A DNA stretch of 64,000 nt from Escherichia coli (GTDB taxonomy: Bacteria; Pseudomonadota; Gammaproteobacteria; Enterobacterales; Enterobacteriaceae), in the NCBI RefSeq assembly GCF_044324785.1, contig NZ_CP172127.1; one strand, 5' to 3'. The position numbers and the translations under genes were made by a program. The notes below the pieces were generated by a model. The model made no database searches, was not told the origin of the DNA, and saw only the letters and a program-made list of their open reading frames with translations. Shown here piece after piece: positions 8,318-33,783 of this stretch; within the stretch, counting starts at the first letter, position 1, and every line of letters starts with the position of its first letter.

Positions 8318-8977
8318 ATGGATCGTATTGTTAGTTCTTCACATGACCGTACATCGCTGCTTAGCACCCATAAGGTGCTGCGTAATACCTATTTTCTGCT
8401 GAGCCTGACGCTGGCCTTTTCGGCGATTACCGCAACTGCCAGTACGGTGCTGATGCTGCCATCTCCGGGTCTGATTCTGACGCTGGTGGGTATGTATGGT
8501 TTGATGTTCCTGACCTATAAAACGGCGAATAAGCCGACCGGAATTATCTCCGCATTCGCCTTTACCGGTTTTCTGGGTTATATCCTCGGACCAATTCTGA
8601 ACACCTATCTGTCTGCCGGAATGGGTGACGTAATCGCTATGGCACTGGGCGGAACGGCGTTAGTGTTCTTCTGCTGCTCTGCATATGTGCTGACCACCCG
8701 CAAAGATATGTCGTTCCTCGGCGGTATGCTGATGGCGGGTATTGTGGTGGTGCTGATTGGTATGGTTGCTAATATCTTCCTGCAGCTGCCCGCTCTGCAT
8801 CTGGCGATCAGCGCGGTCTTCATTCTGATCTCCTCTGGCGCTATTTTGTTTGAAACCAGCAACATCATTCATGGCGGTGAAACGAACTATATTCGTGCCA
8901 CGGTTAGCCTGTATGTTTCGCTGTACAACATCTTCGTCAGCCTGCTGAGCATTCTGGGCTTCGCCAGCCGCGATTAA
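8318..8977 (+). CDS. yccA: Inner-membrane protein of the BAX inhibitor-1 (TMBIM) family, modulator of FtsH
   Basis: Track ORF 219 aa [39 protein letters not shown]..., seven hydrophobic segments. Confidence 0.92.
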
Positions 8978-8999: not shown

Positions 9000-9029
9000 A
9001 GCCTCGCTTTATGCGGGGCTTTGTTTTTT
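9000..9029 (+). terminator. Candidate intrinsic terminator after yccA
   Basis: Stem AGCCTCGC/GCGGGGCT (one G-U wobble) followed by TTGTTTTTT. Confidence 0.6.
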
Positions 9030-9067
9030 GTTACACTGCCGGCAGTCTGATTAAGGTAGTAATAATT

Positions 9068-9397
9068 ATGCTGATCTTCGAAGGTAAAGAGATAGAAACG
9101 GATACCGAAGGCTATCTCAAAGAAAGCAGCCAGTGGAGTGAGCCGCTGGCAGTGGTGATTGCAGAGAACGAAGGGATTTCGCTGTCGCCAGAACACTGGG
9201 AAGTGGTGCGTTTTGTGCGTGATTTCTATCTGGAATTCAATACTTCTCCGGCGATTCGTATGCTGGTAAAAGCGATGGCGAATAAATTTGGCGAAGAAAA
9301 AGGTAACAGCCGCTATTTATACCGACTGTTTCCGAAAGGTCCGGCTAAGCAAGCCACCAAAATTGCTGGCCTGCCAAAACCGGTAAAATGTATTTAA
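9068..9397 (+). CDS. tusE: Sulfurtransferase TusE (2-thiouridine tRNA modification)
   Basis: Track ORF 9011..9397 trimmed to ATG 9068 ([23 protein letters not shown]...), 109 aa, DsrC-like C-terminal ...PKPVKCI. Confidence 0.9.
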
Positions 9398-9672
9398 CGG
9401 ATACGAAAATCGGTTAATTCACCCGAGGGATGATGCGGCTCGCTGAGCACCCGTTCTACACGCGCAGAACGCGGGCCGCCACTCTTTAACCACTGCATTA
9501 ATTTTTCTACCTGCCCTTCTTCACCGCAAGCAACCACTTCCACGCTGCCATCGTCAAGATTTTTGGCGTACCCGGTTAAACCCAGTCTTTTCGCTTCGTA
9601 CTGTGTGGTGTAGCGAAATCCTACGCCCTGAACTCGCCCGTAAACCCAGGCAATTATGCAGACTTTCGACAT
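9394..9672 (-). CDS. acyP: Acylphosphatase
   Basis: Track ORF 9394..9885 trimmed to ATG 9672 ([35 protein letters not shown]...), 92 aa with acylphosphatase signature VQGVGFR. Confidence 0.9.
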
Positions 9673-9766
9673 TGCTGCTCTCCTTATCCTTAATGGACGC
9701 GTTGCAAATCCATGGAAAACTCCGGACAATGACGCCCATTTCTTTGCATCGACAGAAAAGTAAATT

Positions 9767-10957
9767 ATGAGTGTACGTTTAGTGTTAGCCAAAGGGCGCG
9801 AAAAATCATTACTTCGTCGCCATCCGTGGGTCTTTTCCGGGGCCGTTGCCCGCATGGAAGGTAAAGCCAGCCTCGGGGAAACCATCGATATTGTTGATCA
9901 TCAGGGAAAATGGTTAGCACGCGGCGCTTATTCGCCAGCTTCGCAAATCCGGGCGCGCGTCTGGACGTTTGACCCGTCTGAGTCTATCGACATTGCTTTT
10001 TTTTCCCGCCGTTTGCAACAAGCACAAAAATGGCGTGACTGGCTGGCGCAAAAAGATGGCCTCGACAGCTATCGTTTAATCGCCGGTGAATCTGATGGCC
10101 TGCCGGGTATTACTATCGATCGTTTCGGTAATTTTCTGGTGCTGCAATTGCTGAGTGCTGGCGCAGAATATCAGCGCGCAGCATTAATTAGTGCCCTGCA
10201 AACGCTGTACCCGGAATGTGCGATTTACGATCGCAGCGACGTTACGGTACGTAAAAAAGAAGGGATGGAACTGACCCAGGGCCCCGTTACCGGAGAGCTA
10301 CCGCCTGCCCTGCTGCCGATTGAAGAACACGGCATGAAGCTGCTGGTGGACATACAGCACGGGCACAAAACGGGCTACTACCTGGACCAGCGTGACAGCC
10401 GCCTGGCTACCCGCCGCTACGTTGAAAATAAACGCGTACTGAACTGTTTCTCCTATACCGGTGGTTTCGCCGTATCGGCACTGATGGGCGGTTGCAGCCA
10501 GGTTGTCAGCGTTGATACCTCCCAGGAAGCCCTGGATATTGCACGGCAGAACGTTGAGCTGAACAAACTGGATCTGAGCAAGGCTGAGTTTGTCCGTGAT
10601 GATGTCTTTAAATTGCTGCGTACTTATCGCGATCGCGGTGAAAAATTTGACGTTATCGTGATGGACCCGCCGAAGTTTGTTGAGAATAAAAGCCAGTTGA
10701 TGGGCGCGTGTCGTGGCTATAAAGATATCAATATGCTGGCGATTCAGTTGCTGAATGAAGGCGGTATTCTCCTGACTTTCTCCTGTTCCGGTCTGATGAC
10801 CAGCGATTTATTTCAGAAAATCATCGCGGATGCCGCAATTGATGCCGGTCGTGATGTACAATTTATAGAGCAGTTCCGTCAGGCAGCCGATCATCCGGTG
10901 ATCGCTACCTACCCGGAAGGGCTATATCTGAAAGGGTTTGCCTGTCGCGTCATGTAA
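9767..10957 (+). CDS. rlmI: 23S rRNA m5C1962 methyltransferase
   Basis: Track ORF 396 aa [27 protein letters not shown]..., PUA plus SAM-dependent methyltransferase domain. Confidence 0.92.
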
Positions 10958-11332
<375 letters not shown>

Positions 11333-11341
11333 TCCCTGAAC

Positions 11342-11379
11342 AAATCCCCGGAAGGTTTTGGCCTTCCGGGGATTTTTTA
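11342..11379. terminator. Shared hairpin terminator between convergent hspQ and yccU
   Basis: Perfect 10-bp stem CCCCGGAAGG/CCTTCCGGGG, loop TTTTGG, then ATTTTTTA; yccU stop codon (11377-11379) abuts the T-run. Confidence 0.8.
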
Positions 11380-15834: not shown

Positions 15835-15852
15835 TCCACTAATATGGCCTTT

Positions 15853-18006
15853 ATGCTAAGTCCTTTGCTCAAACGCTATACCTGGAACAGCGCCTGGCTG
15901 TATTACGCGCGTATTTTTATTGCGCTTTGTGGAACCACAGCGTTTCCGTGGTGGCTGGGTGATGTAAAACTGACGATTCCGCTGACGCTGGGGATGGTGG
16001 CAGCGGCGCTGACCGATCTCGATGACCGACTGGCGGGACGTTTGCGTAACCTCATCATTACGCTGTTCTGCTTTTTTATCGCCTCGGCCTCAGTAGAATT
16101 GCTGTTTCCCTGGCCCTGGCTATTTGCGATTGGCCTAACGCTCTCTACCAGCGGCTTCATTTTGCTCGGCGGTCTGGGTCAACGCTATGCAACAATTGCC
16201 TTCGGTGCATTGCTGATCGCCATTTACACTATGTTGGGAACATCACTGTATGAGCACTGGTATCAGCAGCCGATGTATCTGCTGGCCGGTGCCGTCTGGT
16301 ACAACGTCCTGACACTTATTGGTCATCTGCTGTTCCCGGTCCGCCCGCTGCAGGACAACCTGGCGCGTTGCTATGAACAACTGGCGCGTTATCTTGAGCT
16401 CAAGTCGCGCATGTTTGATCCTGATATTGAAGATGAAAGCCAGGCACCGCTGTACGATTTGGCTCTCGCCAACGGTCAGCTGATGGCGACATTGAATCAG
16501 ACGAAACTCTCGCTGCTTACCCGCTTACGTGGCGATCGTGGTCAACGGGGAACGCGTCGCACGCTGCATTATTACTTTGTCGCACAGGATATTCACGAGC
16601 GTGCCAGCTCTTCTCATATTCAGTATCAAACATTGCGTGAACATTTTCGCCACAGCGACGTACTGTTCCGTTTTCAGCGGCTGATGTCGATGCAGGGCCA
16701 GGCGTGCCAGCAACTGTCACGCTGTATTTTGCTGCGCCAGCCTTATCAACATGATCAGCATTTTGAGCGCGCTTTTACGCATATTGATGCTGCGCTGGAG
16801 CGGATGCGCGATAACGGCGCGCCTGCCGATTTACTCAAAACACTGGGATTTTTGCTGAACAATTTACGCGCTATTGATGCCCAACTGGCAACAATTGAAT
16901 CAGAACAGGCCCAGGCACTGCCCCATAATAATGACGAAAATGAGCTCGCTGATGACAGCCCGCACGGATTAAGTGATATCTGGCTGCGTCTTAGCCGTCA
17001 CTTCACGCCGGAATCCGCCCTCTTCCGTCATGCGGTAAGAATGTCGCTGGTGTTGTGCTTCGGCTACGCCATCATTCAGATAACCGGAATGCATCACGGG
17101 TATTGGATCTTGCTGACAAGTTTGTTTGTCTGCCAGCCAAACTATAACGCCACGCGCCACCGCCTGAAGTTAAGGATTATTGGGACGCTGGTAGGTATCG
17201 CCATTGGCATTCCTGTGCTGTGGTTTGTGCCGTCACTGGAAGGGCAACTGGTGCTACTGGTTATTACCGGCGTGCTCTTTTTTGCCTTCCGTAACGTGCA
17301 ATACGCCCATGCAACGATGTTCATCACACTTTTGGTGCTACTTTGTTTTAACTTACTGGGTGAAGGTTTTGAAGTGGCGTTACCTCGCGTAATTGATACG
17401 CTGATTGGTTGTGCCATTGCGTGGGCGGCAGTGAGCTACATCTGGCCTGACTGGAAGTTTCGCAATCTGCCGCGCATGCTCGAACGCGCCACAGAGGCCA
17501 ACTGTCGGTATCTCGACGCCATACTGGAGCAATACCATCAGGGACGTGATAACCGTCTGGCGTATCGTATTGCCCGCCGCGATGCACACAACCGTGATGC
17601 TGAACTGGCGTCGGTGGTATCAAATATGTCCAGCGAGCCGAACGTTACCCCGCAAATTCGCGAGGCCGCGTTTCGGTTGCTGTGCCTTAACCATACGTTT
17701 ACCAGCTATATCTCAGCCCTCGGTGCTCACCGGGAGCAGTTAACTAATCCTGATATTCTGGCGTTTCTTGATGACGCAGTTTGCTATGTTGATGACGCGC
17801 TACATCATCAACCTGCTGATGAAGAACGCGTCAATCAGGCATTAGCTGGCCTGAAACAGCGGATGCAGCAACTTGAACCGCGGGCAGACAGCAAAGAACC
17901 TCTGGTCGTACAACAAGTCGGGTTATTGATTGCATTACTGCCAGAGATTGGTCGTCTGCAACGCCAGATTACTCAAGTTCCGCAGGAAACTCCTGTTTCG
18001 GCGTAA
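15853..18006 (+). CDS. yccS: Inner-membrane protein YccS (aromatic acid exporter-like, FUSC family)
   Basis: Track ORF 15844..18006 trimmed to ATG 15853 (MLSPLLKRYTWNSAWLYYARIF...), 717 aa. Confidence 0.9.
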   Translation: MLSPLLKRYTWNSAWLYYARIFIALCGTTAFPWWLGDVKLTIPLTLGMVAAALTDLDDRLAGRLRNLIITLFCFFIASASVELLFPWPWLFAIGLTLSTSGFILLGGLGQRYATIAFGALLIAIYTMLGTSLYEHWYQQPMYLLAGAVWYNVLTLIGHLLFPVRPLQDNLARCYEQLARYLELKSRMFDPDIEDESQAPLYDLALANGQLMATLNQTKLSLLTRLRGDRGQRGTRRTLHYYFVAQDIHERASSSHIQYQTLREHFRHSDVLFRFQRLMSMQGQACQQLSRCILLRQPYQHDQHFERAFTHIDAALERMRDNGAPADLLKTLGFLLNNLRAIDAQLATIESEQAQALPHNNDENELADDSPHGLSDIWLRLSRHFTPESALFRHAVRMSLVLCFGYAIIQITGMHHGYWILLTSLFVCQPNYNATRHRLKLRIIGTLVGIAIGIPVLWFVPSLEGQLVLLVITGVLFFAFRNVQYAHATMFITLLVLLCFNLLGEGFEVALPRVIDTLIGCAIAWAAVSYIWPDWKFRNLPRMLERATEANCRYLDAILEQYHQGRDNRLAYRIARRDAHNRDAELASVVSNMSSEPNVTPQIREAAFRLLCLNHTFTSYISALGAHREQLTNPDILAFLDDAVCYVDDALHHQPADEERVNQALAGLKQRMQQLEPRADSKEPLVVQQVGLLIALLPEIGRLQRQITQVPQETPVSA

Positions 18007-18598
18007 GAGAGTCAGCCCATTCTGCAAGCTCCTGGCGGCGTGCCACCGGGAGCGCAGCTTCATGAATGCCGATAATGGCCCCTTCAAGCATAAACAGAAT
18101 CTTTTCTGTCACCAGACTGTTTTGCTGCCGCAGTCGCAACCAACACATTTTTGCCCCAAGTATACGTAACGCCCGTACATCCTTAATCCCCACCTCCCCG
18201 AGAATCGCTTCCAGATGAAAAGACATATTGGGCAAATCTTTCAGTCTTTCCCGGGTATTGCGCGTGCTTTTCTCTTTCAGCGCTGCATCGAGAGAATATT
18301 TCGACAGACGCACCAGCTTCAGTTGATTTCGCCATAGACTTTCATCAACCCGATAGTAATTGAGGGTAACGGATCGGCCACACTTTTTATATGTCAGCCA
18401 GACAGGCGGATGTTTTACACAGTACTGTGCACTTTGCTCACAAGCCCGAAGATACAACTCACCATCAGAAACCATCGCAAACACCGTGTCGTCAACGGTC
18501 AGGCTGTAACTACCAAACAATGATCGGTATTCAATTGTGCCCAACGTTGCCAGGTATTCTTGTGATTTATAGATCCGCTTATAGGAGAGGCTTTTCAT
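17969..18598 (-). CDS. sxy: Competence regulator Sxy/TfoX
   Basis: Track ORF 209 aa MKSLSYKRIYKSQEYLATLGTIEYRSLFGSYSLTVDD...; 3' end overlaps yccS 3' end. Confidence 0.92.
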   Translation of the reverse strand: MKSLSYKRIYKSQEYLATLGTIEYRSLFGSYSLTVDDTVFAMVSDGELYLRACEQSAQYCVKHPPVWLTYKKCGRSVTLNYYRVDESLWRNQLKLVRLSKYSLDAALKEKSTRNTRERLKDLPNMSFHLEAILGEVGIKDVRALRILGAKMCWLRLRQQNSLVTEKILFMLEGAIIGIHEAALPVARRQELAEWADSLTPKQEFPAELE

Positions 18599-32134: not shown

Positions 32135-33244
32135 GTGGCGACATTAACCCGGCTTTTTATTCATCCTGTTAAATCGATGCGCGGCATTGGTCTTACACAT
32201 GCTCTGGCAGATGTCAGTGGTCTGGCCTTCGATCGCATCTTTATGATCACGGAACCTGACGGTACGTTTATTACCGCTCGCCAGTTTCCCCAGATGGTAC
32301 GGTTTACTCCTTCACCTGTGCATGATGGCTTGCATCTCACCGCACCAGATGGCAGTAGCGCATATGTTCGTTTTGCTGATTTCGCCACACAAGACGCACC
32401 AACCGAAGTTTGGGGCACACATTTTACCGCGCGAATTGCGCCAGGCGCGATCAACAAATGGCTAAGTGGATTTTTCTCCCGCGAAGTGCAATTACGCTGG
32501 GTGGGGCCACAAATGACCCGGCGCGTGAAACGCCACAACACTGTACCTCTGTCATTTGCTGATGGCTATCCTTACCTTCTTGCTAACGAAGCCTCGTTAC
32601 GTGATCTCCAACAACGTTGTCCAGCCAGTGTAAAAATGGAGCAATTCCGCCCCAATCTGGTGGTTTCCGGCGCGTCCGCCTGGGAAGAAGATAGCTGGAA
32701 AGTGATTCGCATTGGTGATGTGGTATTTGATGTGGTTAAACCTTGTAGCCGCTGTATTTTCACCACCGTCAGCCCAGAAAAAGGGCAAAAACATCCGGCA
32801 GGCGAACCATTAAAAACATTGCAATCTTTCCGCACTGCCCAGGATAACGGCGATGTCGATTTTGGTCAGAATTTAATTGCCCGTAATAGCGGCGTAATTC
32901 GCGTTGGCGATGAGGTGGAAATTCTGGCAACGGCTCCGGCTAAAATTTACGGCGCAGCCGCCGCTGATGATACCGTCAACATCACGCAACAACCGGACGC
33001 AAATGTAGATATTGACTGGCAGGGACAGGCATTTCGTGGAAATAACCAGCAGGTGTTGCTGGAGCAATTAGAAAATCAGGGAATTCGTATCCCTTATTCT
33101 TGCCGCGCGGGCATTTGTGGAAGTTGCCGTGTTCAGCTTTTAGAAGGCGAAGTCACGCCGCTGAAAAAATCAGCAATGGGCGATGATGGCACCATTCTTT
33201 GCTGTAGCTGTGTACCGAAGACTGCGCTTAAGCTGACGCGTTAG
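32135..33244 (+). CDS. ycbX: MOSC-domain protein with C-terminal 2Fe-2S ferredoxin domain
   Basis: Track ORF 369 aa beginning at GTG 32135 ([19 protein letters not shown]...); GAGGA Shine-Dalgarno at 32122-32126; C-terminal [11 protein letters not shown] ferredoxin motif. Confidence 0.9.
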
Positions 33245-33783
33245 ACTGCCTGTTCGAGGCTGAAGCTGTCCGCATTAACCTGCGGTTTCAGCCTGTCGTT
33301 CATGATTTTAATGGCGTCGCCCAACTGCATCGTGCGACCCGCAATAACAACGCAGGGTTGGGCCAGCAGGCATAGTGCGGCATTTTCGCCAGATTCAATG
33401 ACCAGCAAATTGACCTGCTCGTGAGTATCGCTCAACCAAACGCAGGCCGCATCGCCCGGCATGGGCATCCACATTTCACCATGAGATACAAAATGCCAGC
33501 TTTTCGGCATTTGCGGTTTGAGATAACGAATTGCTACCAGTGCATTAAGCACCAGTTCGGCTTTTTGTTCTTTAGATAAATTAAAATCGCGGCATTTTTC
33601 TTCAAATGAGAAATAGAGCGCTGCATCATCAACACAAAAAACGGAGGGATTAAAGGCATCTGGTGTGAGCATTTTACGAGCAAAACGCGAGCGAAATAAC
33701 ATACCATTGGCTAAATCGAGCATCATTCGATCGTGCTCTTCATCATAATACCAGCGCCAGTTATCGTCAGGTTTAATTCGCAT
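33241..33783 (-). CDS. zapC: Cell-division protein ZapC
   Basis: Track ORF 180 aa [30 protein letters not shown]... Confidence 0.92.

Follow-up and report, generated by a model that had tools for sequence, protein, structure and literature searches.

How do two genes that converge tail to tail end their transcripts when no base separates them, and why does such an arrangement last? The question is raised by tusE and acyP (also named yccX) in a 64,000-nt stretch of Escherichia coli DNA (the window), where the two stop codons interlock on the four nucleotides TTAA at positions 9394-9397. The pair is shown here to be an ordinary minimal tail-to-tail overlap of functionally unrelated housekeeping genes. 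The explanation preferred for its persistence, at a probability of roughly 0.85, is passive retention: constraint on the C-termini of both proteins would hold the overlap, each transcript would come to its end within the partner gene, and a trace of RNase III-cleaved duplex would be tolerated.

Two genes on one stop tetramer

Read directly, positions 9389-9399 are TGT ATT TAA CG. The plus strand at 9386-9397 (AAA TGT ATT TAA) ends tusE with K-C-I and a TAA at 9395-9397, and the minus strand (...CGT ATC CGT TAA) closes the 92-aa open reading frame of acyP with a TAA that spans 9396 to 9394. These are two genuine convergent genes, whose opposite-strand stops share two bases. The central claim of the preliminary description, that the stops of tusE (9395-9397, plus strand) and acyP (9394-9396, minus strand) lie on one TTAA, was confirmed by re-translation and by RefSeq; the tetramer is common to both strands in the sequence, in the open reading frame list and in the RefSeq annotation of near-identical genomes. 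In a genome of 99.9% identity RefSeq gives tusE and yccX identical coordinates and the same 4-nt overlap, and a K-12 derivative and a B2 strain carry the overlap in their annotation too.

The protein products agree with both gene ends. tusE (yccK; 9068-9397, plus strand) encodes a 109-aa DsrC-family sulfurtransferase with the C-terminus ...VKCI. The DsrC profile is matched full-length (Pfam PF04358, 6e-45, residues 4-109), the alignment with DsrC-family PDB structures extends to their last residue, and the C-terminal arm contains the conserved penultimate Cys. yccX/acyP (9394-9672, minus strand) encodes a 92-aa acylphosphatase (Pfam PF00708, Acylphosphatase, 1e-26, residues 8-91), which aligns over residues 1-92 of 92 with the solved E. 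coli acylphosphatase of the same length (PDB 2GV1, 3.5e-60). Mis-assigned stops were what the preliminary description had named as fatal to its claim, and re-translation, PDB, Pfam and RefSeq all uphold both stops. An annotation artefact, with one stop codon or frame mis-assigned, can be regarded as ruled out: AcyP has the 92 residues of 2GV1, TusE ends at the conserved C-terminal residue of its family, the re-translated gene ends are identical in 78 of 80 species, and no point was found in favour of such an error.

TusE acts in the sulfur relay for tRNA 2-thiouridine, and AcyP is an acylphosphatase. The gene order around them is serT, yccA (8318-8977, plus strand), tusE, yccX/acyP, rlmI (9767-10957, plus strand) and hspQ.

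The arrangement belongs to a described class. The four tetramers of convergent overlap (CTAA, TTAA, CTAG, TTAG) have been named and 58 convergent overlaps counted in E. coli (Lillo and Krakauer, 2007; PMC2174442). The frequency of convergent overlaps jumps at a length of four: the 1890 overlaps found in 58 genomes fall to 1218 when those shorter than 5 nt are left out (PMC2174442). [CT]TA[AG] is the modal class of convergent overlap and was already known; tusE/acyP is one instance of it, without any difference, and its orthologues show all four tetramers.

The first 50 kb of the window contain eight convergent pairs, three of which overlap, two of these by exactly 4 nt; the remaining five have spacers of 31-75 nt. 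The second 4-nt case is formed by ycbX (32135-33244, plus strand) and zapC (33241-33783, minus strand), with stops interlocked on TTAG at 33241-33244. yccS (15844-18006, plus strand) and sxy (17969-18598, minus strand) share a 38-nt convergent coding overlap (17969-18006). Both pairs also appear in the published excludon list considered below. The hspQ/yccU pair resembles tusE/acyP in ending two converging transcripts, and does so with a bidirectional intrinsic terminator; it has a 44-nt spacer, in which an A-run and a T-run border a 15-bp hairpin, whereas tusE/acyP possesses neither a spacer nor an element of this kind. The perfect 15-bp hairpin of hspQ/yccU (11342-11375) gave weak, sub-threshold Rfam matches to NsiR1 and His_leader, which probably just reflect its resemblance to a terminator.

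Conservation of the overlap and of the protein ends

Of 5426 complete E. coli genomes, all but one (5425) contain the tusE/acyP locus. The species comparison used one genome per species for the 80 closest species, all of them Enterobacteriaceae and spread over about 30 genera. acyP is convergent with tusE in all 80. The preliminary description had proposed that conservation be checked across this family, and the 4-nt stop interlock proved to be kept in 78 of the 80 species. Among these 78 loci (the counts leave out the two without overlap) the tetramer is TTAA in 48, TTAG in 11, CTAA in 11 and CTAG in 8, all four permitted forms being present. The TusE C-terminus is KCI in every species, preceded by Val in 79 (VKCI) and by Ala in one (AKCI).

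The sole two species without the overlap lost it through small indels. Cedecea colo (L057, 2828-2836) carries a 7-nt tandem duplication (ATTTAGT ATTTAGT) that leaves a 3-nt spacer, and in Entomohabitans teleogrylli (L054, 2828-2833) the sequence is TAATCA, in which the stops abut and acyP uses TGA.

The two stops interlock as [C/T]TA[A/G], the only form that the genetic code permits. Under passive retention, the changes that keep both stops would be confined to T<->C at the first position and A<->G at the fourth, and any other change in the tetramer would be expected to lengthen or truncate a protein at a C-terminus that matters. The overlap would thus persist because almost any change is harmful. 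Because each of the two stops is read on an mRNA of its own, they work independently of one another. Free change at only the two degenerate tetramer positions fits purifying selection on both protein ends; as far as the aligned sequences go, such selection predicts the conservation pattern, which would need no selection on the overlap itself. Retention over about 30 genera, despite the capacity of indels to abolish the overlap as in the two lineages above, could instead mean that the antisense arrangement is selected.

Two variations at the protein ends were noted. In Escherichia (E. coli, E. albertii) AcyP ends in ...FRIR, and in the majority of other genera it ends in ...IRY, with a C-terminal Tyr. 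A 3-nt deletion directly 3' of the tetramer (window 9398-9400; about 2831-2833 in L004-L081) took the Tyr codon in Escherichia; the same deletion also removed the tandem second stop of tusE (TAA TAG), yet recreated the 4-nt overlap. Several E. coli-like TusE variants are of odd length (119 aa in P0005, 108 aa in P0043 and P0047, 106 aa in P0063), and stop-shift or start-shift cases at the junction could be among them; the TusE matches listed in this protein search were all of at least 88% identity.

Where the two transcripts end

Zero intergenic bases make an intergenic terminator impossible, and a G+C-rich hairpin with flanking A-run and U-run is absent between tusE and acyP, where there is no spacer. 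A terminator scan found no terminator-like site on the plus strand from 9020 to 11080 and none on the minus strand within tusE. The preliminary description had stated that there is no room for a terminator and that each transcript must run into the other gene. The first statement stands as regards the missing spacer and the negative scan, and has to be qualified as regards the coding sequences, in which stem-loops are embedded on both strands. The second is logically inevitable and is borne out for tusE running into acyP, by a mapped 3' end and by an RNase III duplex, and for acyP running into tusE at gene level only.

The tusE transcript ends within acyP. A Term-seq 3' end classed as 'antisense yccX' has been mapped to the minus strand of MG1655 at 1030253/1030252 (Adams et al., 2021; PMC7815308, supplementary file 1); of the three sheets for growth conditions, two contain it. 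The 61 nt that flank it recur without change at window positions 9433-9493, which puts the end at 9493/9494, 96-97 nt beyond the tusE stop. The tusE 3' untranslated tail (9398-9494, plus strand) therefore runs antisense to the final third of acyP. It contains a long, imperfect stem-loop (9412-9491, plus strand; RNA fold of -27.7 kcal/mol), whose base is 2 nt upstream of the mapped end. No U-tract follows this stem-loop, and its stability is not unusual (z = -0.55). Supplementary file 2 of the Term-seq study lists no Rho termination region at the locus (PMC7815308), and the TERMITe supplements hold no entry for tusE/acyP. In Klebsiella aerogenes, tusE (EAE_RS15705) is flagged with a significant 'Termination' event in the analysis of a rifampicin time series (PMC10349824, supplement).

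Three-prime ends that are Rho-dependent or trimmed, and that a stem-loop lacking a U-tract protects, have been described previously (Dar and Sorek, 2018; PMC6061677). The tusE end is similar in that it follows the base of a stem-loop by 2 nt and has no U-rich tract after it; it differs in that no Rho region is listed there and in that the stem-loop, at z = -0.55, is not unusually stable. An end in this position would be the signature of downstream or diffuse termination plus trimming. Under passive retention, tusE mRNA would accordingly be terminated downstream or diffusely and then shortened by 3'-exonucleases as far as the protective stem-loop.

The fate of acyP transcripts is seen in gene-level RNA-seq. 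In wild-type total RNA (PMC7373196, Table S1c), sense and antisense levels are 19.0 and 13.6 RPM for yccX, 40.3 and 15.2 RPM for tusE, 365 and 4.5 RPM for yccA, and 60.7 and 3.5 RPM for yccW; the antisense/sense ratio computed from these values is 0.72 for yccX and 0.38 for tusE, an unusually high level of antisense RNA for both genes. By arithmetic, the antisense density over yccX (13.6 RPM over 279 nt) is close to that expected if tusE transcripts stop one third of the way in. Antisense RNA over tusE (15.2 RPM) nears the sense level of yccX (19.0 RPM); per nucleotide, it is then about 7-fold lower over yccA. The levels over tusE and then yccA suggest that acyP transcripts go well into tusE and mostly end before or near yccA.

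The strand that these transcripts would enter folds strongly. The 154 nt after the acyP stop (minus strand) reach -50.7 kcal/mol (z = -3.9, with none of 200 shuffles as good), against -39.4 kcal/mol (z = -0.74) for the complementary tusE strand, and in 76 of the 82 orthologous sequences compared the minus strand is the more stable of the two. Two hairpins stand out. Hairpin 1 (9341-9383, minus strand; -27.7 kcal/mol) begins 10 nt past the acyP stop and is antisense to tusE codons 92-106. Hairpin 2 (9302-9333, minus strand; about -13 kcal/mol) is antisense to tusE codons 76-89 and is followed by U5CUU (UUUUUCUU, 9294-9301), so that a stable hairpin with a U-tract, resembling a terminator, is found about 100 nt past the acyP stop. 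In E. coli, an acyP mRNA entering tusE would first meet the very stable hairpin and then the hairpin with its U-tract about 100 nt downstream; its end point is one that we infer, and little acyP mRNA would reach yccA, to judge from the gene-level RNA-seq.

A fold of this strength on the minus strand (z = -3.9; 76 of 82) might be a sign of selection on a 3' structure, and the promising z-score led to its consideration as a candidate. It was rejected, the score being outweighed by zero covariation and shuffle-level pairing. No compensatory changes were found at 29 pairs in an ungapped alignment of 81 sequences, in which 86.9% of cells are paired compared with 87.0% in shuffles. The paired bases of the hairpins correspond to first and second codon positions of the conserved TusE residues N-S-R-Y-L-Y-R-L-F. 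Varying third positions break hairpin pairs without covariation, and synonymous sites near the overlap vary freely. From these alignments the hairpins are regarded as probable by-products of conserved TusE codons, and an Rfam search of the tusE/acyP junction matched no known RNA family. In E. coli they may nevertheless stabilise acyP transcripts or terminate part of them.

This raises the alternative that dedicated intrinsic terminators lie within the partner coding sequence, notably for acyP at hairpin 2 and its UUUUUCUU tract (9294-9333, minus strand), and that read-in is short and programmed. We hold it to be unlikely. The hairpin directly followed by U5CUU, the greater stability of hairpin 1, the z-score of the minus-strand fold and the 7-fold antisense drop from tusE to yccA all point towards it, as does the estimate that about 20% of the genes in convergent overlaps have a predicted rho-independent terminator within the partner gene (PMC2174442). 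However, hairpin 2 is missed by the standard terminator scan, and in most other species it is weaker, with a central stem mismatch and the U-run reduced to UUUCUCUU. No acyP-strand 3' end was mapped at the U-tract or elsewhere in tusE in three Term-seq conditions (PMC7815308), where low expression may limit detection. The lack of compensatory pairs and the shuffle-level pairing argue that conserved TusE codons give rise to the hairpin. By arithmetic, termination at about 100 nt predicts only about half of the antisense density found over tusE, so that at most a part of the transcripts would terminate there.

Double-stranded RNA and the question of mutual regulation

Since both transcripts run into the partner gene, roughly 100-200 nt of one tail are complementary to the other. 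Under passive retention, such tails would pair occasionally and be cut by RNase III, and a product of this cleavage has been captured in vivo at low abundance. It is a 21-nt perfectly paired duplex of the tusE tail and acyP mRNA, obtained with p19 as CGAGGGAUGAUGCGGCUCGCU / CGAGCCGCAUCAUCCCUCGGG, with both strands recovered at 1.4-1.5 RPM (Huang et al., 2020; PMC7373196, Table S3), near the dsRNA reporting threshold of 1 RPM. By sequence, CGAGGGAUGAUGCGGCUCGCU / CGAGCCGCAUCAUCCCUCGGG is placed at 9422-9445 of the window, on both strands. Given the weak expression of both genes, this duplex most likely serves no regulatory purpose and is a by-product that the cell tolerates.

The opposite reading is that of a functional excludon, in which the overlap itself is selected and convergent transcription with RNase III cleavage makes tusE and acyP mutually antagonistic; a small RNA (RyhB, for instance) that acts on one partner might then be coupled to the other too. 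yccX-tusE is in fact listed among the 165 convergent excludons that make up the 'excludome' of E. coli MG1655 (ExcludonFinder; PMC12288877), and yccX/tusE have been cited as tail-to-tail mRNAs that co-purified in RyhB MAPS (PMC7154689). The pair is like the convergent excludons in overlapping transcription and RNase III processing: transcription was found to overlap, in the direction from acyP into tusE at gene level only, and a processed duplex is present, with the antisense/sense ratios given above and with the overlap kept in 78 of 80 species. Excludons are, however, defined by mutually exclusive expression, of which RNA-seq of rnc mutants shows no sign for tusE/yccX. In rnc-14 and rnc-38 (single RNA-seq values) the sense RNA of both tusE and yccX is lower, not higher, as it is in neighbouring genes, and RNase III-dependent mutual repression finds no support in these values. 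The ExcludonFinder criterion of overlapping transcript boundaries is automatic for any expressed pair with overlapping coding sequences, and the dsRNA lies close to its reporting threshold. Weak expression of both genes should make polymerase collisions rare, TusE and AcyP have no known functional link, and the synonymous sites near the overlap vary freely and without covariation. Mutual antagonism is accordingly judged improbable.

A further proposal is that head-on RNA polymerases, positioned by nascent stem-loops, set both 3' ends by collision. Ju et al. (2019) and Wang et al. (2022) put this model forward for convergent gene pairs in E. coli, numbering in the hundreds, with terminators that are neither intrinsic-like nor Rho-dependent. 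The tusE 3' end, which follows a stem-loop without a U-tract at a site with no listed Rho region, would agree with it. At the low expression of these genes (19-40 RPM), however, simultaneous convergent polymerases should be infrequent, and the acyP strand has no mapped 3' end as a counterpart, so that collision appears very doubtful as the cause of these ends. Dedicated terminators in the partner gene, a functional excludon and collision-driven termination are all rated as possible but unsupported.

The most elaborate version would combine several of these elements. Selection on obligatory antisense pairing of the 3' tails would keep the stops interlocked and couple the expression of TusE and the acylphosphatase, the hairpins embedded in tusE would serve as terminator or stabiliser for acyP, and RyhB/iron-dependent control could possibly be passed between the mRNAs, because the pair co-purified in RyhB MAPS. 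We give this combination very little credence.

Passive retention thus leaves tusE/acyP as a clean, well-conserved textbook case of minimal convergent overlap, with no new mechanism or element. The arrangement is common and already documented, the pair itself is annotated and present in transcriptomic resources, and no special function is indicated. For weakly expressed housekeeping genes the lack of an intergenic terminator appears to be tolerated, RNase III clearing the trace of dsRNA, and the pair could be used as a natural test case for the termination of convergent genes with zero spacer.

Some observations concern the neighbouring genes. yccA has an intrinsic terminator (hairpin 9000-9020 followed by a T-run), and a Term-seq 3' end at 1030711 corresponds to window position 9035, leaving only 33 nt to the ATG of tusE at 9068; tusE sense RNA amounts to about 11% of that of yccA. 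tusE may depend on read-through of the yccA terminator or on a promoter inside yccA. Published Term-seq 3' ends internal to open reading frames also map to 11080-11102, inside hspQ, and to about 10939, inside rlmI. The end within hspQ coincides with a small hairpin followed by CGGTTT in the terminator scan.
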